Virus record (IMG/VR): IMGVR_UViG_3300027566_000003 | DNA length: 64,000 nt | From: a virus | Taxonomy: Duplodnaviria; Caudoviricetes | Strand: one strand, 5' to 3' | In this document: in pieces, positions 380 to 56,863 of the stretch | How the letters are laid out: every line of letters begins with the position of its first letter | How positions within the stretch are numbered: the stretch's first letter is position 1 | The notes under the pieces: generated by a model | Told to the model about the DNA's origin: nothing | The model's input: only the letters and a program-made list of their open reading frames with translations | Databases searched by the model: none | Translations under genes and position numbers: made by a program

Positions 380-3300
380 TTACTTCCTCATAAACCCCAA
401 TCCTTCAATTGCGTCTCTGTATTCTTTTAATCTATTTTCCATATTTTGACCTTCTTTTAATGCTAAAAGTACCACATCACGAATATCATCTGCTATATCT
501 TGTACTTCATAAAGAAGATCTTCTATTTCATCATATGAATTGTTCTTAATTTTTAAAATTTCAAGTGCTTTATCTTCTATATATTGATGATAAGTACAAA
601 TTTGTTCATTTTCTTTTGGTTTTCGCATAATTTATCCTTCCCTTTAAAAGTTTACTTTATTTTATTAATTTAATTCCCCATCTACATAAAAAATTCACAT
701 GGGTTTCTTTGTCTTTTATTAAGAAATCAAAATATATATTTCTTTTTGCAAACCAATCATCAATATCAAGTAATAAAAATCCTAACCAATTACGCATCTT
801 TGAAAAAATCTCCTTTAAAATTTGGATTTCATGGGATATTAGTATTTGAAAACAAGAGCATTTGGAAGCATAGTGGAGTATATGGAAGATGATTATTTTG
901 TCTTTATATATTTTTCTAACATTTTATATAGTTCAGGTTCATTACAAAAATCATCAATAGGATATGCTGAACTTCTCTTACCTCTTAAATTATTGGGGTC
1001 AGGAAATCCTATAATATCTAACTCAGATATCAAACCAACATAGATATCATTTCCACTGTTTACTTTTCCAATGTGTTCTAAAAACTTGTCTTCCGCATCT
1101 TTCTGACTCTTTGCTTCAATTCTAACTACGTGTAATTGAACATAAGGTTCATCATAAATTCCTATATATTGAGCGTACATCCCATCATACTCCTCTATCA
1201 TTGGATTACCCATATTTTATTTTGAGTCTCCACTTTAACACTACCATTCTCTAAATGCTCTACATTAATAACTTTTTCGTGGTTAAAAAATGAACCTTTT
1301 TCATAAACTACCAATAATGGATTGTTAACAATTATTACGGTTTTACTCATATCCAACTCTTTATGTAGATAATGAGAGCAGACATCAATATTAGTATTTT
1401 TGTTTTTAATTGATGTAATTTTCATACATCCTCCTTGAAATTATTTTTTATTTCTTTTAATATTCACACTCTGGACAAAATGCTCCTGCATTTTCAATCT
1501 CATATTCGATTTTATTATCTTTTAATGCTTTAAGATAACCTATAATTTGATATTCAATTTTATCATGATAGTAATCACCAGAAAGTAATTCAATAAAGAA
1601 TAATTCATCTTTCTCATTTTCAATTTTTAACAGTCTTTTACGCCCACAATCACAATTTGTAGATTCTTTTATTAATCTCATTTTTATAATCCTCCCTCTT
1701 TTATTTATTTTTACTATCAAAATAATTGCTCAAAGATTCACCATACCACTCCCAATTATCCACTCCACCATTTTCCAATGCAGTTAGTATTTCATCTCTA
1801 TGTATAAGTTCATCATATTCCTCTTTGGAAATTGCATTTTTAGTATTTTTAATTTTAATGCTATTTCCTGTAATCGCATTAATTAACTCAGACATAGAAT
1901 TATTGATTTCAGATTTTACTTGATTTTGAATATCTGAATATAAGTTACTATACAGTCTATCAATAGTTTCAGATTTAATTTCATCCATAATTTCTTCTTC
2001 AGCAAGATCAAGTGATTTTGTCACATCTTTACTAAATGTGTCTTCATACTTCTTTTTATATTCATCTTTAATTTCTGAAATTAATTTTTGATATACCTTT
2101 TCTTTAATTTCCTTTTTAATTTCATCTCTGATTTCATATTCATCTTTATATGTAAGAGATATCTTATTTTTCATTTCGTTTTTAACCTGATTAATTGCAC
2201 TAGTGGTAATGTCATCAAAAGTTGCTTCTGACATTTCTTTAATTACCCCCCAACTTAATACCCTCAAAAACTTCTTCGAAATCAAATTCAAATTTAAGTG
2301 CCGTACTCATTATATTAACTCCTCATTATTTAATAATTTTACACTATTTTTATATTTTATTAATTTTATAGATGCATTATTGTCATCTAAATACGTTTCA
2401 TAAGACTCTTCGCACCACATTCCTTCACAAGATGAATATCCAGAAGGTGTGACACAGGATTTATGCTCTCCATAATCTGTTCGATAACAATAGTCACAAA
2501 TTGTTTCATCGTCGCACATTTCTTCAAATGATTTTAGTACCATACTTTTCTCCTTTAAAATTCTTTTTTATAGTAACTTTATTTCGTCACTAGACCAATA
2601 ATCTCCCAACTCTAAACACCTATAAATTTGTTTTTCTCCGCACCAATGAGTTTTTTCGACGGTAACATAGCATCCAATGAATTTTCGTTTCCACTTCTTA
2701 TTGTTTTCATTATTATTATCATTTAACTCTTTATAAAGATGATACATTCCAGTCATATTAGTTTCGTCTACAGAAATAATAATTGCTTCATATTGTTGAG
2801 AGTGATAGTGTACATGACAATCATAAATAGTACCTGTTTTTATTCCTATGTAATTGCCATTTTCATTGCGAAGACATTCTTCGTTTAACCCTGTTTTATT
2901 ATTGTTCCATACAGTTAATATTTCCATTTTATTTTCCATCCTTTAAAATCAGTTCTTTATGCTATTTAACATTTTCATTCAATTCATCTATCATTTGATT
3001 GATAAGTTTTACTTTCGAAATTGATCTGCTTTTATCATCTCCAGACAAATAATTCTTGTTCTCATATTCTAAAGTTTCCATTGCTAATAAAATAGCAAGA
3101 TTAGATTTAAATATTTTCTTAGATTGTAAATCCATTTATGCATCCTCCTTTTATAAGCAGTTAAAATGTTAAGTTCGTAGTAGTTCTTTCCCACACATAG
3201 GACAATAATTTATTTTTATTTGTACTGATTCAGTAGCATCGCATAAATAAGGCATAACCGTCATATCCCCATCATCTTCTATGTATACTTCACGTAAATT

Positions 3301-6300: not shown

Positions 6301-8922
6301 GTAACAATGAATTAAAATTTGATATGTTCATTAAGGGTATCTCCTCTCATATTTTAATCATAAATAAAATTGAGATACAAATTCAAGATGTTCAATAATT
6401 TCATCAAGTTCTAATATTGTACCTTTCGACATCCCTTCAACACCTTTTAATTTATTTATAAGCATTATTGCCTTTCTTATACCTTGCCCTCTGGTCATAA
6501 TCAAACTCCTTTCTTAGTACGATGAAATATTCATTTTGTAGTATTTAATCTCCATTGTAGATATTCAATTTCTTTCCTCATTTGTCCGAAAACAGAACCA
6601 ATAACCACTGCTTCATCATAATGTAATTTATTTATATTAGTGGCTGAAGATAATATTTTCCATAATTCATCTAACGTTTCTTTGTTCATTTTGCCTATCA
6701 CTCCTGCCTTTCATCACATTCATTTTCAAATGCACAACCATTACATAACCACACTTTGCACTTTTCACAAAAACACATTGAAAATCATTTGGATCGTTCA
6801 TTATTAATCTCCTTCCTAATTATCACTATCTGTAAGAAAATCTGCTTCAATTTTATTGATATATACTCTTGGATAAAAGAATTCGCATTTATCAAATTTT
6901 GCAAGAATGTTAAAGGTTATATTGTCTTTATTTTGTTTAAAAATTATTTCCTTAGCTAAAGATAAATCAAACCCTGAAATACAATTCACACATTACCCTC
7001 CTCACTTGAAACGCTTCTTTGATTCTGGTTACTCATCTGCTTGATGTAGTAATTTCTTCATGTATTTTTCCAAACTAATTTTTATATTGATCATAGTATT
7101 AATATCTCTACCATAAGCACGACCAAAAGCTTGCTTTTCTATTTTAATTTCTTTCTCTAACCATTTAACGCAACCTCTAACACCCTCAGATTTATAAAAT
7201 AATTCCCTATTCATTTCATTTTTATCTCCTTCCTCATGAAATGTATCATTGATTTGATTTTACTTTCTTATTATTTTTCCTTAAATAACAGTCTATATAA
7301 TAAGTATTTAAATTACGATCTAAATGCCCATTTTCATTACAAGGTCTATCTTTGATTGGGATAATATTGTAATCACATTCTACACAAATATCTTTTAACT
7401 CTTTAAAAACATCTTTACTCAATTTATTCTCCTCTTTTTATTTTCTCTTCAATTTCTTTGATTGCTCTTTCTTCTTGTTTAATAATTCCTTTTGCTCTCT
7501 TTAACAATTCTTTTCTCAACTCCATATTAGTCATATCATTTACATATCCAAAAGTAGTCATCATATTACCACATGTTAAGAATAATCTAGGGTCATCTGC
7601 ATGATTTGATTGTGCTACAATTACTGGACTAGAATGATTTCCAATACTGTAATCATTAATATATCTCCCACAACCCCTGAATTCATCTATTCCATTCATA
7701 CCTGCATTAATATTATCAATGAATTGTTGTTGATTCTTTTCAATAACGTGCCACGCATCGTTTAAAATTGTGATTGTTGTCATATATCCCATTATTATTT
7801 CATCCTTCCTAAAATCAATTAAAAATGCAATTTTAAGCGAACAACTTATTAAATCTATCGACCGTAGATTCAATTTGCTCTTTAATTTCTGCTTCCTTCA
7901 ATTTCTTATTCTCCTCAATATTTTTATGATATAAGTTAATCTTTGACTTAAGATCATTTAAATAATTAGTAATTAATTTTACCCAATTCCCTTCATGTTT
8001 CCAACCATAATATTCTGTCCATCCATTCTGACCACCTAAAACTCCATAAACTTCAAAACGATTACTAGAATTAATTAATTCTTTGTCAGTTAAACCATGT
8101 ATATTTTCAACTAAGAATACTCTAAAACATTTACCTCTTGCATGGTCGCTTAATGCATATATAATATTACCATTAATATAGCACTCCTTGCCTAGACCCC
8201 ATGCGTCATCTGTGTTTAGTCTTCTTAAATTACCTATCTTAAATCTATCTGCCTCTGAAATAATATTATAATATCCTCTTGCACCTTTCATAATTTCTCT
8301 CCTTTATAATTATTTCCCAATAAGTTGTTCTTTTCGAAGGGTTTACTTATTTGGTAAATCGTTAATAATCAAACCAATTATTTGTGATATATTTAAATCT
8401 TCAAATAATCCTTCATTCTTCATATCTTTTGCCATTTGATACATAGCACCATAAAGAAAATAAAGTTTTTGTTCTTCGGTCATCTTCTTCATTGTCCGTA
8501 CTCCATTTCTAATGCCTTCTCCCAACAACTAGTGCAAAAGAATACTGGGCAACCACTTTCTTTTTTATCAAAAAGATCAAATTCACTAGGGCAACTTCCT
8601 CCAAGTATTAAATCTGCTAAATTCTCATTGCTCATTTTTGCGAGTGTTTGGTTAAACTTTTCTCTTCCTGTCTTTTATTTGTTTCCTTTCTACTTAACAT
8701 CAAACCATAATTTTATCTGTTGATTTTTACTATCCCGTATGCAAAAGAAATACCCATATTATCATCTGTAATTAAACAATCTTTGTTTTTATCGTACTTC
8801 AATTTAGTAATATAATATCCATGTATTATTTTTCCTTCGTAACCATTTTCCATAACGTGTGGCATTGAAATTATATCACCTTCTTTTAAAATGTTTTCAT
8901 AAATATCTTTAATTTCTTTCAT
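380..8922 (-). other. array of about 25 short co-oriented hypothetical phage genes (e.g. 380-628, 893-1213, 1701-2291, 2568-2939, 3169-3552, 4063-4572, 4572-4889, 5605-5955, 5981-6331, 7833-8291)
   Basis: Tightly packed minus-strand ORFs with GGAGG/AAGGA RBS; no recognisable family motifs. Confidence 0.75.
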
Positions 8923-24427: not shown

Positions 24428-25135
24428 TTAAGGTTTTTGTTTTGAGTCTAGTAAGGGATAGATATAATTATAACCTATATTAGAAATACTTAGCAACTCT
24501 AAAAGTAAACCGAAACAACTTGATATGACAATTATTTTTATATTAAAGAGCAAGAAGATGGTCATTAATACGGCCCATATGGATAAATAATATAATGACC
24601 ATCGTTTAAATTTATGACGTTCTAATTGTTCTGCAATTGGTTTATTTGGCGTGTCTCTTGGAATATAGCGATAAACTATATATAATGTCATAACAACACA
24701 AAAAATAAATAAATACCAAATTCCTAAAAATGGCCAATATTGGAGAGTGTATTTTACTATTAGCGATGTTGTAATGAATTGAATTAAAGATATTACTGTA
24801 CATTTATTATATGTTTTAAAATGATATCCACCTGCCATTGGTCTTAAAGACATAAAAGTTAAGACTACTACAATGGCAGGTGAAAAGACTCCCAAGATTA
24901 ATGACAACAATACTAATAATAAACCTTTAAATACCGCACCAACAGGAAACATGAATGCTAGACTATATACGCTTATAAGTTCTTCAGTGGTTTTTATTTT
25001 TTTAATATTAAACTTATGAGAGAGTTGTGGAAATACCCCTGCGATCCATCCCCAAGCATATTCAATTTGATCTAATGGTACTTTCTTTACCATTTTATGA
25101 GCTAAATTATTTGATATAATTTGAATTAGATTCAT
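24428..25135 (-). CDS. agrB: accessory gene regulator B (AIP-processing membrane peptidase)
   Basis: LRPMAGGYHFKTYNKC catalytic His/Cys motif, YIPRDTPNKPI, multiple TM segments. Confidence 0.92.
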   Translation of the reverse strand: MNLIQIISNNLAHKMVKKVPLDQIEYAWGWIAGVFPQLSHKFNIKKIKTTEELISVYSLAFMFPVGAVFKGLLLVLLSLILGVFSPAIVVVLTFMSLRPMAGGYHFKTYNKCTVISLIQFITTSLIVKYTLQYWPFLGIWYLFIFCVVMTLYIVYRYIPRDTPNKPIAEQLERHKFKRWSLYYLSIWAVLMTIFLLFNIKIIVISSCFGLLLELLSISNIGYNYIYPLLDSKQKP

Positions 25136-25151
25136 TTAAACTCCTTTCAAT

Positions 25152-25943
25152 TTAGGCAAATGCTACTTGCCTCCCTGTATTATAGTTATTTTGATATTGA
25201 AATGTTTTTTGTGTTCTCTCTTTGTTAAAAGTTTCTAGAACTTCAATAGCAAACTTTTCAGGAACATCTAAAGGAATATATCCGTCTGCCTTACCAAGTC
25301 CAACGGCAACTTTCATCATTAATTCTTTCGAACATTCTGCTACTTTTTCTACTACTCCTGATCCTGAAATTAATCTTCTTTTACTGATTGTGTCTTCTAA
25401 TTCACAACAAATGATAGAATCACATCTTAAACCATGCTCCTTTCCTATAAAAACATGAGTCGGTAATGGCGGTTTACTGCCTACACGACTAGTTATTGCT
25501 AAAACCTTTGTGTTACTACTGAATAAATTACCTTTTGGATTTTGCACCACGAGCACAGGTCGATGTCCTATCACCTCTGAATCAATCCCACTGTCAGAAA
25601 AATTACAAAAATATATTCCTCCACGTTCTATTTTTATATTTCTAATTTTTTCTAAATCATTATTTGTATAATTAGAATATCCACAAGCCAAAGTCAAATC
25701 CTTAAACGAAACTCGCCCTTGAGAATTATCAGAAATTACCTTTAGAAATGTTATATCTGGGTATGTAGACATTTTAGTCTTAATTACACCCTCCATATAA
25801 TCCCCGCTAACCTTACAATCTGCTGCAAAATTATCAATTGATCTATTACCTTTTGCAAGTATAACGTAATTTGCAAGTTTCTTAAAATCTTTTTTAGCAT
25901 TTTCCTCAGTATTAGATTTCCTAGTAATTAATTTGTTAAACAT
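25152..25943 (-). CDS. XRE-like HTH domain fused to a PemK/MazF endoribonuclease
   Basis: N-terminal AKGNRSIDNFAADCKVSGDYM helix pattern; C-terminal RGGIYF...HRPVLVVQN...LAITS...LPTHV. Confidence 0.85.
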   Translation of the reverse strand: MFNKLITRKSNTEENAKKDFKKLANYVILAKGNRSIDNFAADCKVSGDYMEGVIKTKMSTYPDITFLKVISDNSQGRVSFKDLTLACGYSNYTNNDLEKIRNIKIERGGIYFCNFSDSGIDSEVIGHRPVLVVQNPKGNLFSSNTKVLAITSRVGSKPPLPTHVFIGKEHGLRCDSIICCELEDTISKRRLISGSGVVEKVAECSKELMMKVAVGLGKADGYIPLDVPEKFAIEVLETFNKERTQKTFQYQNNYNTGRQVAFA

Positions 25944-26004
25944 ATCAATACACATCCTTTTTATTTTTAGTAAGATATTTCAATATTCGGTATTTAATAA
26001 TATA

Positions 26005-26034
26005 ATTATATCTTACAATGGATATGTATGTCAA
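26005..26034 (-). promoter_or_regulatory. sigmaA-type promoter for HTH-mazF and agrB
   Basis: TTGACA-18 nt-TATAAT. Confidence 0.65.
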
Positions 26035-26072
26035 TATATATTTTATTTTTTGTCATTACATTATTTTATGAT

Positions 26073-26100
26073 TATAGGGAAGACCGTAGCCTTCCCTATA
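26073..26100. terminator. 10-bp stem hairpin just downstream of agrD
   Basis: TATAGGGAAG-ACCGTAGC-CTTCCCTATA; lacks a clear U-tract, so it may be a stabilising stem. Confidence 0.55.
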
Positions 26101-26112
26101 TGTAATATGAAC

Positions 26113-26232
26113 TTATTCGAAACATTTAAGGGTTTCTGGTTGATAACTCCACATTGCGGAAGCTAAACATAAGGAACATACTGTAGCAATTGTGATAAGA
26201 CATCCTGCAATAATAGTATATTTGTTTTTCAT
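26113..26232 (-). CDS. agrD: AgrD-type cyclic autoinducer prepeptide MKNKYTIIAGCLITIATVCSLCLASAMWSYQPETLKCFE (39 aa)
   Basis: GGAGGTG RBS, TAATG overlap with the upstream gene, hydrophobic leader, xxxWx-YQPE motif and charged tail; near agrB. Confidence 0.88.
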   Translation of the reverse strand: MKNKYTIIAGCLITIATVCSLCLASAMWSYQPETLKCFE

Positions 26233-27062
26233 TAGAATTCACCTCCTTTTTCATTAATTTTTACATCATCCATTACTATATCCTGCGTAGCAAGATTTTC
26301 GTATGTCTGGTGTATTCTTTTTTCAACTTTTAGGATATAATTAACTATTAATAATATAAATGTTATAGTAATCGTCGGGATAATAAACATCATAACTACT
26401 ATAATTAATTGTTCAAAAAACGATAAATTTATTAAAATTAAATCTATTCCTATTAGTTTAATTAAGTAAATCATTGTAATCATTATACCTATCAATAAAC
26501 TAAACATTGATCTTTTTAAGAAACTATTTTTTAGTATTATATCAAATAACTTAATTTTTACATCTTCACTTTTTTTTACTATTAAGTATGTCAATATAGA
26601 ATATTCTATTACTCTTGCTGGTAATGAACATAAAAAATTCAAAATAAAGTTGGAGTTTATGTATAAGATATTTGTTTTTGTGAGAGATAATATTAACGGG
26701 TAGTAGCATTCTAATATTGAAATAATGAAAATTCCTAATATTGTATAAAACAATGCTTTAAAGTATTTAATCTTCTCTTGAAGTAAATTATTATTTTTTA
26801 TAACAACTAATGTTAATAAATATAATACTAGTATACCAGTTATTTGGGCAATAGATTTTGAAATATTTGTTAATCTTGCAAAACTTATTATAAAAGACAT
26901 TCCAATTGCTGGTAAAGCGACCCATTTTATATTATCTTTCCACATTCTGATATCTAATAAATCATCTCTACTTATACCTATTAATACTATTGCTACAACG
27001 AACAATTCTTCTGGTAAACTTACTAAAAACATGTTTAATAAGGCATTAATTGTACTTTGCAT
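26232..27062 (-). CDS. polytopic membrane protein, AgrC-sensor-like but without a histidine kinase domain
   Basis: Several hydrophobic segments, short cytoplasmic tail, no HisKA/GHKL motifs; translationally coupled to agrD. Confidence 0.55.
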   Translation of the reverse strand: MQSTINALLNMFLVSLPEELFVVAIVLIGISRDDLLDIRMWKDNIKWVALPAIGMSFIISFARLTNISKSIAQITGILVLYLLTLVVIKNNNLLQEKIKYFKALFYTILGIFIISILECYYPLILSLTKTNILYINSNFILNFLCSLPARVIEYSILTYLIVKKSEDVKIKLFDIILKNSFLKRSMFSLLIGIMITMIYLIKLIGIDLILINLSFFEQLIIVVMMFIIPTITITFILLIVNYILKVEKRIHQTYENLATQDIVMDDVKINEKGGEF

Positions 27063-27080
27063 ATGTATCTACTCCCTATC

Positions 27081-27144
27081 TCTTATTATTTATCTTATTA
27101 TTTATCTTAGGATAATTATACCATATGCAAAGTATATAAGTCAA
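27081..27144 (-). promoter_or_regulatory. promoter for the receptor-agrD unit with downstream direct repeats
   Basis: TTGACT-18 nt-TGgTATAAT; TCTTATTATTTA twice plus TCTTAGGATAA at 27081-27115. Confidence 0.65.
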
Positions 27145-27153
27145 TAAATAATT

Positions 27154-27717
27154 TTATATTTTGTTTATTATATGTATTTGGTTGGACGCTTTTATGGAAT
27201 TGTAAGTAATTATAAATACAAACGATCTGAATATTAAATCCCCTGGCGACATACAACACCATCCGAAATCCCACACATCACAAAGCGGTATCATTTTTGT
27301 AAATTCATCTCCCATTATATGATAGTCTCCATACGGTAATGCTTTAACAAACATATCATGTTTTGCATATCCAGTTGCCCATGAGTTAGAAAAAAATACT
27401 GGCATTTTCCCTGAATTAGCTCTTATTGCAATTGTATTAAGTATACTACCTATCCAAACAAGAGGAATAAAACAAAAATATAACTTCATTTTATTATAAG
27501 ATATCGCCAATAATAAGAAACAACTTAAATAAACAGTTTTAAATAAATATGTATATTTAACTAAAGAATAATCACCTTGCCAAATTGTCGATTCAAGATA
27601 AATGTATAGAAGCACCATAAACATAACAGGGTAAATACTCCATTTTTTAAAAATAGGAAGTATTTTATAGTTATTCCATTTGGCAACTAAAAAAGATAAG
27701 AAAACAGTTTCAATCAT
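27154..27717 (-). CDS. DUF5317-like membrane protein
   Basis: GSILNTIAIRANSGKMPV and LCD...SPGDLI motifs. Confidence 0.7.
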   Translation of the reverse strand: MIETVFLSFLVAKWNNYKILPIFKKWSIYPVMFMVLLYIYLESTIWQGDYSLVKYTYLFKTVYLSCFLLLAISYNKMKLYFCFIPLVWIGSILNTIAIRANSGKMPVFFSNSWATGYAKHDMFVKALPYGDYHIMGDEFTKMIPLCDVWDFGWCCMSPGDLIFRSFVFIITYNSIKASNQIHIINKI

Positions 27718-27764: not shown

Positions 27765-29381
27765 TTACGGAGGTTCATCATCTTTTTTAATCATATTCTC
27801 ATAGTCTACCAAATACATCCATCTATAACCTTTTGCAAACTCACGAACTTTATTAGTATCTGATCTTATCCTCTTGGTCAAACAACTACTAATTGCAGAG
27901 TTATTCGCAAGACCTAAATCTTTTGTTGCATCTCTCACAGAATTATATTGTTTAACAAATTTATAATCCTTAGATAAACAAATAATTTTTATAGTTCCTG
28001 TTTGATGATAATCATCTGGTTTAATTAAGATATTGTTCCAAATTGAATAACTTATAGCACCTTTAGTTGCTCCTACATATTCAGCAACTTCATCAAAATT
28101 ATAACCATTATCTAATAATCTTTGTGCTTCTTCTACGTCCCAATCTCTTCTTGTATTTTTACTATCATCAATATATTCTGGCATTTCTTTAATATATGGG
28201 AAAAACATCTGTATTGCTTCCAAAGGAGAATAATCTCTGTGGTCTAAATCTATGTAATTATATTTATTATCTATTGCAAATTGCTTTTTAAGTTTATCTC
28301 GCGCCATATGTATTTCATCATCATGATATTCGCTTTGACATTCTATTAATAGATTTAATCTTGGAACATAAATATCATATTTGCTTACACCATTTTTATC
28401 TGTTCTAAATCCTATATCATATTCCCATTTTGTATCATGATCTTCATGCTTAAATACTTGTTTAAGCGTTGTTGCCATTCTAGACTCTACTTTTTCTCTT
28501 ACACATTCAGGACATCCAAAATTACAATTTTTTGCACTATATATTATTTGTGGATAATCTTCATGTTTACACTCTTTACATTTCCACCAAACTTTTGTAC
28601 TGCTTCCTGGGGTATATTCATATGGAGATTTATTATTTTTATCAGACCAAATTTCTATTGTTTGAGGATATAAATATCCTAAACTATCATATTTATGTAC
28701 TTTTACACGCGAATTACAATACCCACACCTCCCTCCACTAATAAATTCTCCGCAAAGAATATCATAACTCCCATGGTAATCTTTTTCTTGGCATTTAATC
28801 CAAACTTTTCTATTAGTATATTTAGTGTATTTAAAAGGGTCAATTGTATTTTTATCATAGTCCCAATATAATTCTAACGCAGTAACACCAAACGAATCTA
28901 TTAAAAATTGTCCAAAACTATCTTTAGGATGTACAGAATTTTGTCCTTTACAATAACTACATCTATTACCTCTTATAAAATCCGAACCACTAATTTGATA
29001 ACTTCCATGATAGTTTTTCTTTCTACAAAAGATATAAAATTTTTTGTAATTATTATAATTAATTTTCCAAGGATCAATGCCTAATTCATTATTCTTCTCA
29101 TAATCCCAATATTCTTTAAGAAAATCTTCTCCTAAATTATCTATCCCCCATTCTGCGAATGTATAACACAATCCACAACTACTTTTAGATTTTCTATTTA
29201 TAATACCAGAAGGACTGACTAACCAATCCTTGCCGCACGTACAAGTATGTAGTATTTTAGTATTAGCACCAATATATTCAACTCCTTCTTTTAACTTTAT
29301 ATTTGTATCATATTTTAAATTATATTCTTCTAATTCTTGTTTATATTGTTCTGTTGTCTTCTTATTAGTTTTCTTAGTCAA
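27765..29381 (-). CDS. free-standing homing-endonuclease-like protein (repeated zinc ribbons, PD-(D/E)xK-like nuclease, C-terminal NUMOD1-like domain)
   Basis: Repeated KVWxKC...H...C..C units, YDIYVPRLNLLIECQSEYH, KQYNSVRDATKDLG. Confidence 0.7.
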   Translation of the reverse strand: MTKKTNKKTTEQYKQELEEYNLKYDTNIKLKEGVEYIGANTKILHTCTCGKDWLVSPSGIINRKSKSSCGLCYTFAEWGIDNLGEDFLKEYWDYEKNNELGIDPWKINYNNYKKFYIFCRKKNYHGSYQISGSDFIRGNRCSYCKGQNSVHPKDSFGQFLIDSFGVTALELYWDYDKNTIDPFKYTKYTNRKVWIKCQEKDYHGSYDILCGEFISGGRCGYCNSRVKVHKYDSLGYLYPQTIEIWSDKNNKSPYEYTPGSSTKVWWKCKECKHEDYPQIIYSAKNCNFGCPECVREKVESRMATTLKQVFKHEDHDTKWEYDIGFRTDKNGVSKYDIYVPRLNLLIECQSEYHDDEIHMARDKLKKQFAIDNKYNYIDLDHRDYSPLEAIQMFFPYIKEMPEYIDDSKNTRRDWDVEEAQRLLDNGYNFDEVAEYVGATKGAISYSIWNNILIKPDDYHQTGTIKIICLSKDYKFVKQYNSVRDATKDLGLANNSAISSCLTKRIRSDTNKVREFAKGYRWMYLVDYENMIKKDDEPP

Positions 29382-31851: not shown

Positions 31852-32610
31852 TTAGTCTTTCCCTGCAAATTCCTTATAATATTTCTGTCTCATTTCCTCT
31901 GCTAGTACCCCTGCTTTTTCTAAATCGTCAAACTTAAACCTACCAAAACATTTGCTCTTACCTTCAATTTGTAAAACTACAAACCATCTCTCATCTTTCT
32001 TATTCCAAAATACATTTCTATGTCCAGAAGTATTGTTTTTATTTTTACCATTTTGTCTATTTTTAAGATTTAATGAATTACTAGTACATCTCAAATTATC
32101 TTTACAATTCTTTAATGAATCTCCGTTCTTATGATCAACTTTTATATTCTTGTCATTAACTCGCATAATTAATTTAGTTAAGGCTAAATTTCTAGTCATA
32201 TATTTTTTAGTTGCAATGTCACAAATAGTTAAAGTTGTAGTTATATAGTATCTTCCTCTATCTAATCTTGCAAACCATGATAAATCTTTTACTAAATCTA
32301 ATTCTTCAGTATCTATTTCAACATCTATCCTTCCTCCTTTCTTACTATTTACAATCATTATTGTTTTATCACTATTAACTATATATTCATTTCTTGTAGA
32401 TTTAGGTTTATATGTATTGATGTCATTTACTTTCCTATTTAAATATTCTTCATTAACATCAAATTTCTCAGATAAAATCTTTAAACATTTGTCAGGTACT
32501 TTTTCTCTTCTAAACCAATCCCATATAGTACCAGGACTTACTCCAATTTCTTTAGCAAAATTAGTAATATGAATGTCTCTATCTCTAATTAACTCTTCAA
32601 ATCCAATCAA
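31852..32610 (-). CDS. XRE-HTH + HNH + AP2 homing endonuclease
   Basis: FAKEIGVSPGTIWDW; VDHKNGDSLKNCKDNLR; SGHRNVFWNKKDERW. Confidence 0.85.
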   Translation of the reverse strand: MIGFEELIRDRDIHITNFAKEIGVSPGTIWDWFRREKVPDKCLKILSEKFDVNEEYLNRKVNDINTYKPKSTRNEYIVNSDKTIMIVNSKKGGRIDVEIDTEELDLVKDLSWFARLDRGRYYITTTLTICDIATKKYMTRNLALTKLIMRVNDKNIKVDHKNGDSLKNCKDNLRCTSNSLNLKNRQNGKNKNNTSGHRNVFWNKKDERWFVVLQIEGKSKCFGRFKFDDLEKAGVLAEEMRQKYYKEFAGKD

Positions 32611-35600
32611 TTATTATATTCTCCTTTTTCAGTATAAAACATCTCTCGAAGTGTAATAATATCTTTCCTTAATACTTCTTTAGTTTGATGCCTTAACCAT
32701 CCATAAAACTCATTAGCTAGAGGTGTGGCTAAAGAACTAGTATATTTAGTATATCCATTCCTAGAAACGTCCTCTTTAACACTTCTCATATGTTTCCAAA
32801 AACCATAATACTGCAATTTTATTTTAGTCATAAATCCAACATTATCTTCTAAAACAAATCCTTCGATATATTGCCCCTTATATTTATAGTCATCTGCGGT
32901 TACTTCTTCATACCATTGATAGAATTCTCTCCAATTATCTAATATCTTTGCTTTTACTTTCAAAGGTATATTATATTTATTTGAAAACAACTGTATTTCT
33001 TCATATGATTTTTTCTTTGGTTCATTGATATCATTCTCTACAATTTCTAATAATACTAAATGAGGGAAAATATATTTAATCATATGAGGATCATTAGTGG
33101 GATCAATTACTTCAAATACTAAAGTTGATTTTTGTTCTTTGAGATATTCCTTTATCTCTGATTGCTGGTCTAGAGTAAGAGTATCATTAAATATATCTCT
33201 AAAATATCCTGCAAATTCACTATTAGGATTTGATTTTGAGCTAATTAATAATTCATCTCGACTAGAATCATACCCTACTAAACCTAAGAACCCATTGTAT
33301 TTTACCCATGCCGTTACAGGGAATTGGAATACATTTTTAAGATTATCTAGTTTGACATTCTCTCTTTGATTGACGTTAAAGAATTTTTCATAGCTACGAG
33401 CTACCACTTCTCCAGTTTCAATATTAAAAAATAATCCTCTCGCTTTTATAGTTTGTTCATCCCATATATTTTTATAGAATGCATCTTTTGTAAAATTAAA
33501 AGAAGATATGTGACCGAATTTAGATTCTCTGACATATCTATTCGCTCTTAGTTTCTCTATTAATTCCATATTAGAAACTACAATCTCTTCGGATTTAATT
33601 GATTCAATTTTCTCTTCAATAGGCTTAAAGATATTATTTTTAACCTCAATAGTATTAAATCCTTTGTCATCTAATGTGACAATCCTTAAGTACCCTCCAA
33701 ACTCACATTTTCCTTCGAGGCAAAAACATCTTTCATTGATTTGAATTGGAGAATCTGCCACGTTCCTATGACCGTGGATTTGGTAATAATTATTTGGAGT
33801 TGAATTAAGAAATCTACCATTGACCATTTCCATTTCTTTATATTCTCCAACTCCTTTGATCAATTGTTCTGTGGCAAGAAATTCAAATCTTTCTGGTATT
33901 GTACTGATACCACCATGAGTAACAACTACTACTTTATTATTATATGTATAATATGCCAACTGTCTTAATTTTCTATAGAATATTCTTAATTTCTTCTTAT
34001 CTATTTGCAATTTATTCAACTCTCTTTTGGTAACTTGCTCAAATTCTTTACTCTTTGTTGGCATGTCGTTAGAATAGTCCCACAAATGACAATTACCAGT
34101 AATAATAACCCTACCATCAAGTCTAGTAATCAAAGTTCCTTTAGACATTGTGCAACAATAAGTCAAATTATTATATTCTTCTTCCGTAACCGTTACTGGA
34201 TGGTTAACACTTCCATAATAAAATATACTCGCAACATATTGATATTTTCCATTAGAAAAACCACTTCCTTCTTTATAATCATATTTACAAATAATTCCGT
34301 TTTTTACGCACATTTCTTGAACAATATCTATATTTTGACTGTTAATTGTTCTCCACTCAATATTATTGGCTTTTAAATATCCGTCTGATTTTATTAATGT
34401 ATCTAAAAATATAGACACTTGTCTTTGATTAAAGTATTTCCATTCGTTAGGTATTAATCTTTCATTATGTATTTTATTGAATATATCTCTAGCATATTCT
34501 CCATATATTCTTATGTAATAGGGTTGTACTCTATTTAAGTCACTCATTTTTGCTTTTTGAAAAGTATAAGGTATGTCCATTCTATCCAACAATTGCTTAA
34601 CACTTTTTATTTTTCTTTCTTTGCTAAATTTAAATTGGATTCTCTTTTTAATAGAATTTGGATTACCTTTTATATTATCCACAATTGTAGAATCCATTAT
34701 TACCCATGTTAATAATCTAATCCAATCATCTTCTATATTAACTACATTATCATTTGTATACCCCCATAGAGTAAAATCACGTTCTTCTAAATTATGTTTA
34801 TTCAAAAGATCTTTTGCTTTAACTTTTTCTCCTTTATATATTATATCATGATTAGGCGTAACCTTATGTCTGATATTATGACTATTGAAATTGATTATAG
34901 TATTTGATTCTTTTTTAATTGTTTCAATTGGGTTATCAAAACTAATTTCTTTTGATATGAGGTCATATTGTGCCACCACATCTTCTTTTGTAATATTTTC
35001 TATAACTTTCCAGCCATCTTTTGTAAGTATTTCAGTTCCTTTTGCTAAACATTCATGGTTCCCTTGTAAAAATATCACATTTAATTTATCCATAACTGAA
35101 AACAAGTAATTAAGTAATTCTACATTCTCAATTCCTCGATCAACATAATCACCAACAAATACATATAGTTCATCTTCTTTTAATTCTCCACCTAAATATT
35201 CTTGCAAGACGGTATTACATCCATGCAAATCTCCAATATGATGAATCTTTTTATAATTAGAAAAATCTAAAGGTGAATATGTAATTGTGTCCCAAAATTC
35301 TTCTGGTTTAATAGCTTTTACTCCACTAGAAATCTTTTGAGACTCAAATCTAGCATACATATTGTCAATTACAAAATCATGCACTACTTTATAATCAGGT
35401 TTCCTATTTTGATTTCTTTCTTTACAAACTTCAATAGGAACATCTGTCATATCAACACAAATGATTCTGTATCTATATGTTTCTGCCATACTTTTATATC
35501 GATTTAATTCAACTGTTTTAGAATTAGTTGCATCAACAACTACAAATTCTCCACGAATCATTCTTTGTTCTAGAATATCAAATAACAATTCCCAAACTTT

Positions 35601-36728
35601 TTTATCATTCTTTTGACTAATTCCATACCTTCCGTCAGTAGTCATTATGGGAGACTGTAGTAGTAACCTAATATTGTCTGCACTTAAAGCATATTGTTCT
35701 AAATTATTATCTTTAATAAATGTACTCTTGCCACAATTACCAGTAATATTTATATGACCATCTCTTCGTAAAACCAACATACCACTTGGAACAGTAAAAC
35801 AATACTTATGTCCATCTAGTGTTTTATATTCTTTAATTATTTTATCCTTATATTCTTCTCTCCCTTTTGTAGATATTCCTACCAAATTATAAGAACATTT
35901 ACTCACACGATAAGTAATGGGTTTGTCTTCTCTTTCATCAATAGATATACCACTTTTATAACCAGTAGATGAAAAAACATATTGAATAAAATCAGCATCT
36001 TGTTTATTAGTAGTATAATAAGCAATTGAGTTGTCTTGTTTATTAATCGAACCATCCCATTTTATACATTCATCACTAATTATATCTAAACACTTTCTCG
36101 ATAGGTTATACCAATTATGAGGAAAATTTTTTATTCTCAATGGTGATTTGAACATAAAATTAATGTACCCTTCAACATTTGTCTCATTGTATATTTTTTC
36201 TTCAAAATCAATATTGCATTTATTTAATAAAAATCTTATTCTTTCTATTTTTCTTTGTTTTTTAATTCTTATTCTACATCTATTGGTGTCTCTAGGATAA
36301 TTGCCATCTGCACAAATAGCAACTGTCAATCTTAATTCAAATTCGTTAAGTTCTGAATTTTCATTACCATATGTATTAAAAGTAGTTATAAATTTTCCTC
36401 TGAAGCCATGATTGTTTTTTAAATGTTGTTTATAAACATCTGAAAAAACTTTTTTATTTATATTGCCTTTTGAACTTATATATACTAAATTATGATCCAA
36501 AGAAACACATTGACTAACTCCTTGTGTTTGAATTAAATACAAATTGTCTTCTTTATATTTGTGATATTCCAAGGGACTCACCAACTCAGAGCTTCCGTCG
36601 TCATTATATTGTAAAACTTTATCTCCTTCAGTATATTCTGATATTCTTTTCCATTCTACTCCATTAAAATATTCCGTGTCACAGTCTACACAAGCTGGAG
36701 CACCCCTAAATAATGTTAATATCCTCAA
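32607..36728 (-). CDS. polynucleotide kinase-phosphatase-RNA ligase (Pnkp-like RNA repair enzyme) precursor with two inteins
   Basis: GAPA|CGKST P-loop; IGDLHG, GDYVDRG, GNHE metallophosphoesterase; HGHRN; KFFN and KYNGFLG ligase motifs, EGFV, KIK. Confidence 0.9.
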   Translation of the reverse strand: MRILTLFRGAPACVDCDTEYFNGVEWKRISEYTEGDKVLQYNDDGSSELVSPLEYHKYKEDNLYLIQTQGVSQCVSLDHNLVYISSKGNINKKVFSDVYKQHLKNNHGFRGKFITTFNTYGNENSELNEFELRLTVAICADGNYPRDTNRCRIRIKKQRKIERIRFLLNKCNIDFEEKIYNETNVEGYINFMFKSPLRIKNFPHNWYNLSRKCLDIISDECIKWDGSINKQDNSIAYYTTNKQDADFIQYVFSSTGYKSGISIDEREDKPITYRVSKCSYNLVGISTKGREEYKDKIIKEYKTLDGHKYCFTVPSGMLVLRRDGHINITGNCGKSTFIKDNNLEQYALSADNIRLLLQSPIMTTDGRYGISQKNDKKVWELLFDILEQRMIRGEFVVVDATNSKTVELNRYKSMAETYRYRIICVDMTDVPIEVCKERNQNRKPDYKVVHDFVIDNMYARFESQKISSGVKAIKPEEFWDTITYSPLDFSNYKKIHHIGDLHGCNTVLQEYLGGELKEDELYVFVGDYVDRGIENVELLNYLFSVMDKLNVIFLQGNHECLAKGTEILTKDGWKVIENITKEDVVAQYDLISKEISFDNPIETIKKESNTIINFNSHNIRHKVTPNHDIIYKGEKVKAKDLLNKHNLEERDFTLWGYTNDNVVNIEDDWIRLLTWVIMDSTIVDNIKGNPNSIKKRIQFKFSKERKIKSVKQLLDRMDIPYTFQKAKMSDLNRVQPYYIRIYGEYARDIFNKIHNERLIPNEWKYFNQRQVSIFLDTLIKSDGYLKANNIEWRTINSQNIDIVQEMCVKNGIICKYDYKEGSGFSNGKYQYVASIFYYGSVNHPVTVTEEEYNNLTYCCTMSKGTLITRLDGRVIITGNCHLWDYSNDMPTKSKEFEQVTKRELNKLQIDKKKLRIFYRKLRQLAYYTYNNKVVVVTHGGISTIPERFEFLATEQLIKGVGEYKEMEMVNGRFLNSTPNNYYQIHGHRNVADSPIQINERCFCLEGKCEFGGYLRIVTLDDKGFNTIEVKNNIFKPIEEKIESIKSEEIVVSNMELIEKLRANRYVRESKFGHISSFNFTKDAFYKNIWDEQTIKARGLFFNIETGEVVARSYEKFFNVNQRENVKLDNLKNVFQFPVTAWVKYNGFLGLVGYDSSRDELLISSKSNPNSEFAGYFRDIFNDTLTLDQQSEIKEYLKEQKSTLVFEVIDPTNDPHMIKYIFPHLVLLEIVENDINEPKKKSYEEIQLFSNKYNIPLKVKAKILDNWREFYQWYEEVTADDYKYKGQYIEGFVLEDNVGFMTKIKLQYYGFWKHMRSVKEDVSRNGYTKYTSSLATPLANEFYGWLRHQTKEVLRKDIITLREMFYTEKGEYNN
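34092..35051 (-). mobile_element. intein 2 (320 aa) inserted right after GNHE of the phosphatase domain
   Basis: Begins CLAKGTEIL, ends ITGN followed by Cys; LAGLIDADG-like blocks. Confidence 0.88.
35736..36692 (-). mobile_element. intein 1 (319 aa) inserted in the kinase P-loop
   Basis: Begins CVDCDTEYF, ends ITGN followed by CGKST; VAICADG block. Confidence 0.88.
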
Positions 36729-54344: not shown

Positions 54345-56129
54345 TTAATAATTTCCTTTCCTTTAAATATATTTGCTATTTCAAAACATTCATCTAATTT
54401 AAGATTACCATCAATATCCAATTCCCCAACATAAAATTCTCTCCCTTTGGAGTCTTTTGCAAAATATTCTTCTGTAAATTCATATAACTTTGCCTTAAAT
54501 ATTTCTCCTATTTTTACTTCTGCTAAAATTTCTGTCTCATCGTGTTTATATAAAATAAAACCTTCTTTTGCTTTTACTTTTAAATACATTATCAATCATC
54601 CTTTTCTTCTTTATTAAATACCACGAAAATTGACTTTCATTGTACCCTATTCTTCCTTTAGTATTTTTCTATATGTCTTTTGTAAATATCCATCATCGTC
54701 ATATAATAATCTTTTTTGAGACTCTTGCATTTCTTTTTTAGTAAGGTCTTTACAAAATTCATCAAATTGTCCCTCATACATAGGTGTTACTCTTATATCT
54801 AAATAATCAACTAGATTTTTATTTCTTACACATTCATCACAATACCAACTATCATGATTAAAACATATATGATATGCTTCACAACAATTTTTTCTATTGC
54901 CCATTATTATTTCTCCTTTCATAATAGGTTAAAAATGACTTTCATTTACTTACATACTTTTCAAACCATTCGTTGTCATTACCAACGTCACGAACACTAA
55001 TTATATAATTTTGATTAATTACTTCTATATCAAGACTTCCTAAACGATATTTCATAAATGGTAACTTCTTTTTTAAATTCCAAACTGTAAAGGTGACATA
55101 ATTATAATCAATATCATATTTTGATCTATCCACAATTACTTGATTATTAAACCATGTCACATCTTCACAAGCATAAAATTTTCTGCCATTGGATAATATC
55201 ACTTCAATCATACTTCCCACCACCTATATCTAAATCCTTGGAATCCCTTAATTGTGAATGGTAAATTTTCGTTCCTTAAATCTCTTAATAATAACAAACA
55301 ACCTTGCCATACTCTGCCAGTTACTTCACAGGTTAATCCAGATAATTCATCACCCTTGCCACAAAACTCCATTGATGATTCTACTTTATTATTTTTAATA
55401 AAATATAATCTATCACCAATGTTTAGACTCCTAGGCATTTTACTTAAAGTCTAAAATTGATACGCATCTGGGTTATTTAATAAGAATTCTGTTTCCTTGT
55501 CATCGTTTTTATATTCTGATTTAGAAATCGTGACCACAATATCCATATAAATTCTCCTTTCAATTGGCTTAAAACATAACATTCGAAGTACTAATCTTTA
55601 TCATATAATCCAAAACAAAGGACTCTATCCGAATATCCAACATCATGAAATTCTAATATACATTCCTGACGCATCCACGGATAAGGATATGACATCTTTG
55701 ACAATTGTTCATCTGTTAGTAATATCATATAATCCATTTCTAATTTAAAATCATCGTCAAAATCTTTTAATATTGCTCTTAATTGTCCAACTGTTTTTAT
55801 ATTTGTGTTCATTATTCTATTTCTCCTTTACAATCCTTAATCAACACTGGCACAGGTGAAATTCCAAAGTCCCATCTAGACACTAACCCACACTTACTAC
55901 ATTTATAAGTAACAAATTTCTCATCACTAACAAAACTATCACTACTTATTAATTCATTGAAGCATAAAGGACAATAACAAAATGTTTGTTGATTACATTT
56001 GTCTAATTTTTCTACATAATAATTCAATTCTTTTTGTTTATTTATGTTGTATTCGCCTGTGATATTTTCATAGTATACTAAGTCTCTTTTGAGTTTCCAA
56101 ATTTTTAAACGATAATATAGTTTAAACAT
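54341..56129 (-). other. short hypothetical genes
   Basis: ORF track. Confidence 0.6.
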
Positions 56130-56863
56130 TAATTTAAACCTCCTTCGATTTCTACAACATTAAATCCTAACTCCTCTGCCTCGTTTCTATCAAAACCGCT
56201 ATCTAAATGCATACAGTATATTTTATTTCTTAACTCTTCAGGAATTAATTCTGTAAGTCTTCTCAATGACAAATGAACATTACCATTATAATCTGCTTTG
56301 CAAGTATCTTGGTATAGATAATTAATCTTACCTTCTTTAAATCCATCTAAAATATTATCTTCTATGTCACAACTGTCACCACTATAATAAATAATATATT
56401 CATGTTCTTCTTCAGAAGGATTTTTAACTAATAATAGCCCAAATGTCATAAGTTCTTTAACATGATTATTTTCTAGGAAATATAATCCTAAATCTAAACT
56501 ATCAATCATTACAGAAGGATCAAAAGCACAATTATCAAATTCGCAATGATCTTCTGTAACTCCCATAATTTCAAGTAATTCAATAAAATCATTATCAGCA
56601 GAATGGAATGTTGGTTTAATTTTCTTGATAAAATAACAGTAAAATATGAAACTACCTAGACTACCTATATGATCTGGATGAGTATGGGTTACTACAATAT
56701 GAACTTCATTAACATCTGATAATAGATTTAGAGATAATATTCTATCAAAAGTCAATTCACCACAATCAAGAAGTAATAGTGTGTTGTTTTCTTTGATGTA
56801 GGCACTTGTGTTTCCTAGTTTTGTGTTGAAAGCCGAACCTGTTCCTATGAATTTTAATTTCAT
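56129..56863 (-). CDS. metallo-beta-lactamase-fold hydrolase (RNase Z / Apyc1-like)
   Basis: FIGTGSAF, LLDCG, THTHPDHIGSL, YSGDS, HL, MHLD. Confidence 0.85.
   Translation of the reverse strand: MKLKFIGTGSAFNTKLGNTSAYIKENNTLLLLDCGELTFDRILSLNLLSDVNEVHIVVTHTHPDHIGSLGSFIFYCYFIKKIKPTFHSADNDFIELLEIMGVTEDHCEFDNCAFDPSVMIDSLDLGLYFLENNHVKELMTFGLLLVKNPSEEEHEYIIYYSGDSCDIEDNILDGFKEGKINYLYQDTCKADYNGNVHLSLRRLTELIPEELRNKIYCMHLDSGFDRNEAEELGFNVVEIEGGLN

Follow-up and report, generated by a model that had tools for sequence, protein, structure and literature searches.

A putative serine-type AgrD propeptide coupled to a membrane-protein gene in a groundwater Clostridium phage

Introduction

The window analysed here is a stretch of viral DNA of 64,000 nucleotides (64 kb). 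An earlier note, made from the letters alone, had singled out in it a 39-residue reading frame as an AgrD prepeptide with a ring closed through a serine. The locus raises the questions of whether the frame is a gene, whether its product belongs to the AgrD family, which residue would close the ring, which protein would process the peptide and what would become of the product. On the evidence below, we consider it probable that the ORF encodes the AgrD propeptide of a large temperate-type groundwater Clostridium phage, and that this propeptide is processed by the phage AgrB into a pentapeptide lactone closed through Ser25.

Results and Discussion

The agrD frame and its upstream neighbour

The agrD gene and the elements discussed with it are as follows.

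26113..26232, minus strand: agrD, 39-aa propeptide (silent-site pattern, matches of orthologues to TIGR04223, sole match to the AgrD model, per-position conservation)
26232-26161, minus strand: agrD leader, residues 1-24
26160-26146, minus strand: predicted ring S25-A-M-W-S29, register by alignment
26145-26116, minus strand: predicted AgrB-recognition tail, residues Y30-E39
26240..26246, minus strand: Shine-Dalgarno sequence GGAGGTG, 7 nt 5' of the agrD ATG
26232..27062, minus strand: 276-aa multi-helix membrane protein of an unnamed family, the constant upstream partner, whose stop overlaps the agrD start

The ORF comprises 39 codons followed by a TAA stop at 26115-26113 and is preceded by a strong ribosome-binding site; the site AAAGGAGGTGA was found 5' of every agrD orthologue. 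The agrD ATG (26232-26230) has its A in common with the TAA (26234-26232) of the 276-aa ORF, forming the TAATG junction. Both the frame itself and its proposed coupling to the upstream gene are thus borne out.

Near-identical copies of agrD are present on five metagenome contigs and one IMG/VR contig. Compared with L001-L007, the gene differs at 7-8 nt in 120 nt; six of these differences are silent, and one codon changes to give S29T. The silent differences fall at third or first codon positions, leaving six of the seven changed codons silent among these close relatives. An alternative frame that overlaps agrD is not kept across the near-identical copies. Because the changes are mostly silent and the overlapping frame is unpreserved, the substitution pattern indicates that the agrD frame is translated and under purifying selection. 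The gene had been described as unannotated, which is right for the ORF track used at the time but not for public gene calls: eight public contigs, up to 236,919 bp long, already have a gene call for the exact peptide, though without a name, and orthologues carry names. A search of sequencing runs for the locus gave no RNA run among the matches listed; the only full match was a groundwater metagenome, possibly the sample from which the window came, and the others covered small shares of the locus.

Relationship to the AgrD family

The peptide has a basic MKNK start and then about 20 hydrophobic residues ending in C-L-A|S, where the bar marks the predicted leader boundary. Its length of 39 aa sits within the range of 38-41 aa found across all relatives. 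The peptide of the window itself matches none of the Pfam and NCBIfam AgrD models (TIGR04223, PF05931), even at E<=10. Orthologues at the same position do score on TIGR04223, for which the curated cut-off is 19 bits: L015 reaches 32.1, L012 30.8, P0030 27.0, L010 22.8 and L016 21.5 bits. In the tail, Q31-P32 is invariant, and the second proline of the P-x-x-P motif, which the authors of the phiCDHM1 study regard as the AgrB-binding site (PMC3901668), is kept in 24 of 30 sequences. The remaining six, which form the sub-clade of the window, have Leu35 in its place, and this substitution accounts for the failure of the curated model on the window's copy. AgrDs in general have this second tail proline, and its loss counts against the main reading.

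The link between the window's copy and its scoring orthologues was made in several ways. Relatives were gathered through the neighbouring 276-aa protein family, and a profile of eleven orthologous peptides found 25 proteins, each 38-41 aa long. For four of these, NCBI or JGI gives the name “cyclic lactone autoinducer peptide”; the same words are the NCBI family name of TIGR04223. The window peptide is tied to the orthologues by this profile and by direct similarity (53% identity, E 4.9e-4, in an exhaustive search of 1.84 billion proteins). That exhaustive search added two more relatives and one false positive, P0029, a sushi-repeat protein. A word-indexed protein search with the window peptide returned only its own 90% cluster.

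As a control that depends less on the phage clade, 18 peptides encoded next to AgrB genes in 401 sampled Clostridia genomes were made into a model, which was then run against all stop-to-stop frames of 25 or more codons in the window (n=1,131). The agrD ORF was the sole match (22.5 bits, E 7.8e-6, for a model whose bacterial peptides were selected starting from the phage profile), with the next best frame at E 2. The same scan disposes of a second AgrD beside agrB, since no other frame of the window matches the model. Altogether, homology, synteny and conservation support the 39-codon ORF as a real AgrD-family precursor, its homology to the family running through its orthologues rather than through the curated model itself.

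Position and size of the predicted ring

Alignment of 30 family members (alignment A5) revealed invariant or nearly invariant residues at K4, A16, A24, S25, Q31, P32 and C37. Ser25 is found in 29 of the 30 sequences; the sole exception, P0052, has a cysteine in the same column, ahead of the tail Y-Q-P-K-E-P-K-C-L. The constant pattern of the family is A-S-x4-[YHN]-Q-P, which places Ser25 five residues ahead of Y30-Q31-P32. The same column holds the cysteine of L018, the chromosomal agrBD of the sole MAG that carries the module (...S-S-A-C-FWFS-YQPEEPKCL), and the Cys/Ser column of the bacterial model. The earlier assignment of the ring to S25-A-M-W-S29 is supported by this homology, by synteny and conservation, and by a C. 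thermocellum peptide with the same numbering. Ring sizes elsewhere in the family vary, with six residues in C. acetobutylicum and nine in E. faecalis (PMC4916163); the alignment predicts five residues here.

Ring positions 26-29 are among the most variable of the peptide, with an entropy of 1.9-2.1 bits, and lie between the near-invariant flanks A24, S25, Q31 and P32. The comparison of related phages that the earlier note had called for gave 24 different serine rings among the 29 Ser-type peptides. Such hypervariability is as expected of the specificity-determining core of an autoinducing peptide (AIP).

Two other readings of the peptide bear on this assignment. The frame might be a chance open frame, or encode an unrelated small membrane peptide that resembles AgrD; it is short and hydrophobic, and the curated AgrD models leave the window's copy unscored. 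Against this stand the dominance of silent changes among its substitutions, the retention of position, length and motif in more than 25 diverged relatives, the orthologues above the TIGR04223 cut-off and its being the only match in the window to a model built from bacterial AgrDs, and we regard a chance or unrelated frame as very improbable. If the peptide is an AgrD, its ring could instead be a thiolactone formed by one of the leader cysteines, which had been offered as alternatives, or by C37 of the tail. The window's copy does have C11, C19, C22 and C37, and C37 is shared by 29 of the 30 relatives. The leader cysteines are nevertheless rejected as ring formers because they are unconserved, with V, F and V at positions 11, 19 and 22 in most relatives, and because several orthologues lack any cysteine before the tail. 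As for C37, only two residues follow it, too few for a ring; its column is variable in bacterial AgrDs (PKCL, PKAL, PKSL, PEAL), and P0043 lacks it. A cysteine ring is hardly credible on these grounds, and Ser25 is retained as the predicted ring-closing residue.

Organization of the module

Around agrD lie further genes and signals of a conserved module.

24428..25135, minus strand: agrB, membrane cysteine peptidase/cyclase, the presumed propeptide processor (Pfam AgrB, 3.3e-33)
25152..25955, minus strand: 267-aa fusion protein with a C-terminal PemK/MazF domain (Pfam, 4.3e-18; synteny)
26005..26034, minus strand: predicted sigma-70-type promoter TTGACA-18-TATAAT, a perfect match (by consensus match only), past the hairpin and ahead of the PemK-fusion gene and agrB
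26073..26100, minus strand: hairpin of 12 bp with a UACG loop, 12 nt past the agrD stop (fold, shuffles, conservation)
27115..27144, minus strand: promoter-like site TTGACT-18-TATAAT with a TG extension, 11/12 (by consensus match only), ahead of the membrane-protein/agrD pair
27154..27717, minus strand: DUF5317 membrane protein, upstream module member (Pfam, 1.9e-15; synteny)

The module runs in the order PemK, an optional homing-endonuclease insert, DUF5317, the membrane protein of about 270 aa, the ORF of 38-41 aa, a PemK fusion of 260-270 aa and AgrB, followed by DndB-like and MrpR-like genes where the contig continues. This order is the same in every contig with readable DNA, and the PemK-fusion gene separates agrD from agrB in all relatives. 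The membrane-protein gene and agrD look like one transcription unit, and the PemK-fusion gene and agrB like another. The agrB gene lies 1 kb downstream of agrD, non-adjacent and in a separate promoter unit behind the PemK-fusion gene, which counts against the main reading.

The phage AgrB keeps the catalytic residues of its family: six phage copies all have R98, G103, H105 and C112, with a spacing of +5/+7/+14 that is the same as that of R70, G75, H77 and C84 of Staphylococcus aureus AgrB, which are required for proteolysis (PMC10196373). Near its N-terminus (residues 23-45), AgrB in the sub-clade of the window carries about 22 extra residues that L010, L012 and L015 lack (alignment A1).

The optional insert is a gene for a DUF4379 zinc-finger/NUMOD-type endonuclease, found in the window at 27765-29381 (minus strand), in L008 at 6641-8254 and in L016 at 1539-3200. 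Its site varies among being before DUF5317, between DUF5317 and the membrane-protein gene, and after AgrB, and this behaviour fits a mobile homing element.

Neither an AgrC-type kinase nor an AgrA-type LytTR protein was found in the module genes and 20 further large ORFs of the 64-kb window, which within these bounds does not carry a canonical agrBDCA set. Those 20 ORFs are of phage type and include an NAD-dependent DNA ligase, several methylases, an RNA ligase/kinase/phosphatase fusion, Thg1, PTH2, and Apyc1-like and T7 gp5.9-like proteins. A 1,373-aa ORF at 32607-36728 (minus strand) combines an AAA_33 kinase, a metallophosphatase and a T4-type RNA ligase with a LAGLIDADG-like segment, where an intein or a homing endonuclease may have been inserted into a protein of RNA repair. 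There are two counter-defence candidates: a T7 gp5.9-like RecBCD-inhibitor domain at 1701-2291 (minus strand; 1e-15), and an Apyc1-like metallo-beta-lactamase-fold protein at 56129-56863 (minus strand; 47.7 bits, just under the Pfam cut-off of 50).

Searches of 50,697 phage records (INPHARED) by megablast with the module and by tblastn with AgrB gave no match. An AgrB profile scan of GTDB genomes returned a single locus, in a Clostridium MAG, that is itself a copy of the phage module.

Further comparison of the module (window 24428-27717) with L006, L008, L010, L012, L015 and L017 revealed a mosaic. Between the window and L006, identity is 95% for AgrD, 91% for the 276-aa protein and 68% for AgrB. 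In the L010-L017 comparison, AgrD and the protein of about 270 aa stand at 67% and 68%; in that of L010-L012, DUF5317 (83%) and AgrB (72%) vary together, with the membrane protein at 41%. Over the seven mosaic loci, AgrD identity tracks the 276-aa protein more closely than AgrB, a further point against the main reading. The pattern suggests recombination between two sub-units of the module.

The hairpin downstream of agrD

The hairpin reported after the ORF is present and conserved. Its 10 perfect pairs become 12 when the G.U and C-G pairs bordering the UACG loop are counted, and its free energy is -21.3 kcal/mol (z-score of -5.1 against shuffles). It is kept in seven relatives (L006, L009, L010, L012, L015, L016 and L017), with a paired A-U co-insertion and compensatory changes; these relatives carry UNCG-type tetraloops, and a U-run never follows. 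Since it lacks a U-run, the hairpin is not a textbook intrinsic terminator and was not called by a terminator scan. Its probable role is that of a 3'-end or terminator-like element at the close of the transcription unit formed by the membrane-protein gene and agrD.

A UACAU pentamer lies 5' of or near the hairpin stem in all copies read except L015 (in the window, within 26073-26112). We take UACAU to be the cleavage motif of Bacillus subtilis MazF/EndoA. The module with this UACAU-flanked hairpin encodes two PemK/MazF proteins.

The 276-aa membrane protein

An AgrD ORF directly follows a homologue of the 276-aa protein in every related contig read, across a family that spans 37-100% identity. 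The protein matches no Pfam or NCBIfam model, and the family has no invariant Cys or His, which makes an AgrB-like cysteine-peptidase mechanism unlikely. Profile comparison of the family by hhalign, against a clostridial AgrC and against a membrane protein encoded upstream of an agrB, gave probabilities below 1%. The AlphaFold model of the protein has a pLDDT of 71. A Foldseek search with this model was uninformative for PDB and Swiss-Prot; among the AFDB clusters, the matches were uncharacterised proteins of similar length (TM 0.68) and, weakly, the helix bundles of MreD, ECF-S and kinase-7TM proteins. Prediction of a complex between the 276-aa protein and AgrD, made without control runs, yielded no verdict either way (score 0.00). 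The label “receptor-like” given to this gene is thus not established, there being no profile similarity to AgrC and fold matches only to uncharacterised proteins or weak helix bundles.

Homologues of the 276-aa protein also occur in bacterial chromosomes, each with an AgrD-like ORF immediately after it and no AgrB nearby, which is a point against the main reading. A Ser-type pair with the ring SVWCF lies at L052:7710-8758 (G046:C21), between sleB/ypeB and DnaD/DnaC-like replication genes, and ends in a classic terminator. Genome G382 (L055, L060) has two Cys-type pairs, with the rings CAWFG and CTWGF.

Proposed processing and stability of the product

We propose that the hydrophobic leader (residues 1-24) would place the peptide in the membrane, where the phage AgrB would recognise the tail Y30-Q-P-E-T-L-K-C-F-E and cut between S29 and Y30. 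The S29 carbonyl would be held as a thioester on the catalytic cysteine of AgrB, and attack by the side-chain oxygen of Ser25 would then give the five-residue lactone ring S-A-M-W-S. A host signal peptidase would cut after the near-invariant Ala24. As the leader would be cut directly after this residue, the released signal would be a tail-less cyclic pentapeptide. This pathway is most likely the standard AgrD route with oxygen replacing sulphur; its cleavage sites, the lactone chemistry and the sensing protein are all predictions.

A serine ring should give an ester signal that lives much longer than a tail-less cysteine ring, though not a stable end product. In Staphylococcus intermedius the mature AIP retains a tail at its N-terminus, and this tail prevents the O->N shift. 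The tail-less pentapeptide thiolactone of Listeria rearranges to the lactam with a half-life of 1.3 min at pH 7 and 37 °C, whereas its lactone analogue lasts many hours, with 36% hydrolysed and 48% O->N rearranged at 22 h under the same conditions (PMC11297923). Tail-less clostridial and listerial thiolactones alike rearrange to homodetic cyclopeptides, and Molloy et al. stated the fate of serine-cyclised tail-less AIPs to be unresolved (PMC8251862). The earlier claim that the lactone would be the more stable form therefore stands as to its slower rearrangement (hours versus 1.3 min for the thiolactone), but not as to a stable end product, in view of hydrolysis and the O->N shift.

It is accordingly a real possibility, though not the one we expect, that the precursor and register are as proposed and the persistent molecule is no lactone, having decayed to a head-to-tail cyclic pentapeptide (lactam) or a linear hydrolysate. 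A leader cut directly before Ser25, which the near-invariant Ala24 fits by leaving no exocyclic tail, would place a free alpha-amine beside the ester and allow an O->N acyl shift; the homodetic cyclopeptides from tail-less thiolactones (PMC8251862) and the extensive 22-h decay of the lactone analogue (PMC11297923) point the same way. On the other side, the shift in the lactone is slow enough that the molecule could signal in the meantime, a lactone is what was reported for C. thermocellum (PMC5322536), and the leader cleavage site is here itself predicted. A different doubt concerns the enzyme: the 276-aa protein, not AgrB, could be the primary partner of the peptide in maturation, export or sensing, within a self-standing two-gene unit that the phage has combined with AgrB. 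In all phage contigs read, the two genes either overlap or directly adjoin each other, the bacterial pairs of G046 and G382 have no AgrB beside them, AgrD identity follows the membrane protein over the mosaic loci, and the C. thermocellum AgrD is likewise orphaned from any agr operon (PMC5322536). However, the family lacks an invariant Cys or His, has no significant profile match to a clostridial AgrC or to an agrB-upstream membrane protein, and finds only uncharacterised proteins and weak helix bundles in fold searches; the co-variation may reflect physical linkage alone, and AgrB is present in every complete phage module. We hold this arrangement to be unlikely, and processing by the phage AgrB to a Ser25 lactone remains the preferred reading.

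Significance of the peptide family

Serine-ring AIPs (C. thermocellum, S. intermedius and GBAP of E. faecalis) and phage agr genes (phiCDHM1) are both already known. The novelty implied by the earlier note is overstated, because Ser-type AgrDs are common and documented, and the peptide itself adds one more clade to them. What sets the locus apart is the wealth of ring alleles within its phage clade, a tail that has lost its second proline, an agrB placed away from agrD, and the coupling of agrD to a membrane protein that is itself uncharacterised. At least 25 ring alleles, built on a near-invariant serine in large groundwater Clostridium phages, form a natural series for the diversification of AIP specificity. 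As the predicted product is tail-less, the family also lends itself well to asking whether AIPs that are cyclised through serine and lack a tail remain lactones or turn into lactams. Moreover, the constant pairing of agrD with the membrane protein, which recurs in bacterial chromosomes that lack agrB, points to a so far unrecognised part of certain agr-type systems.

Next to the module stand MrpR/YopR-like and DndB/YopQ-like repressor genes, and two MazF-type RNases are encoded within it. A more speculative reading, which we think rather unlikely, is that the serine-ring peptide and the membrane protein of about 270 aa form a kinase-free pair of ligand and partner, with the 24 or more rings acting as phage “pherotypes”, in a phage-to-phage communication over lysis and lysogeny that replaces arbitrium in SPbeta-like Clostridium phages.

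Comparison with known systems

One close likeness is to AgrD of Clostridium (Acetivibrio) thermocellum (Clo1313_2818), the only clostridial serine peptide with a chemical characterisation, for which a cut at A24|S25 and a ring S25-F29 followed by Y30 were predicted (Verbeke et al. 2017, PMC5322536). In the same study, LC-MS/MS with a synthetic standard for comparison revealed its cyclic pentapeptide in culture supernatant. By the text of that paper, both peptides have Ser25 after Ala24, a five-residue ring, Y30 and no predicted exocyclic tail. The C. thermocellum gene lies away from agrB, agrC and agrA, much as agrD of the window is not adjacent to agrB. They differ in that the C. thermocellum gene is chromosomal and has Pro35, whereas that of the window is phage-borne, has Leu35, is coupled to the 276-aa gene and lies 1 kb from its AgrB.

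Among phages, the agr3 locus of the C. difficile phage phiCDHM1 (Hargreaves et al. 2014, PMC3901668) likewise has agrD and agrB without a response regulator. Unlike the window, phiCDHM1 has an agrC histidine kinase, a 45-aa AgrD with P-x-x-P and adjacent genes; the window has no kinase found in its 64 kb, a different gene order with PemK/MazF interleaved, and a serine nucleophile.

Clostridial chromosomal agrBD pairs (L018 and nine Ser-type pairs among L030-L050) share the tail [YH]-Q-P-x-x-P-[KEN]-x-L and the A-[CS] junction. They differ in gene arrangement: bacterial agrD directly follows agrB, whereas the phage gene follows the 276-aa gene and agrB stands in the next unit. Of the 18 bacterial AgrDs recovered beside AgrB genes, nine are Ser-type, a share that is biased because the search profile contained serine.

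Two further serine lactones complete the comparison. Similar to the ring proposed here, the AIP of S. intermedius/pseudintermedius is closed through a serine oxygen (Ji et al. 2005, via PMC11297923 and PMC8251862); its system is a canonical agrBDCA operon with kinase and response regulator and is not phage-borne. FsrD/GBAP of E. faecalis (Nakayama et al. 2001, via PMC4916163) is also a serine lactone made from an AgrD-type precursor by an AgrB-type enzyme, but it has a nine-residue ring, another precursor architecture and a full two-component output.
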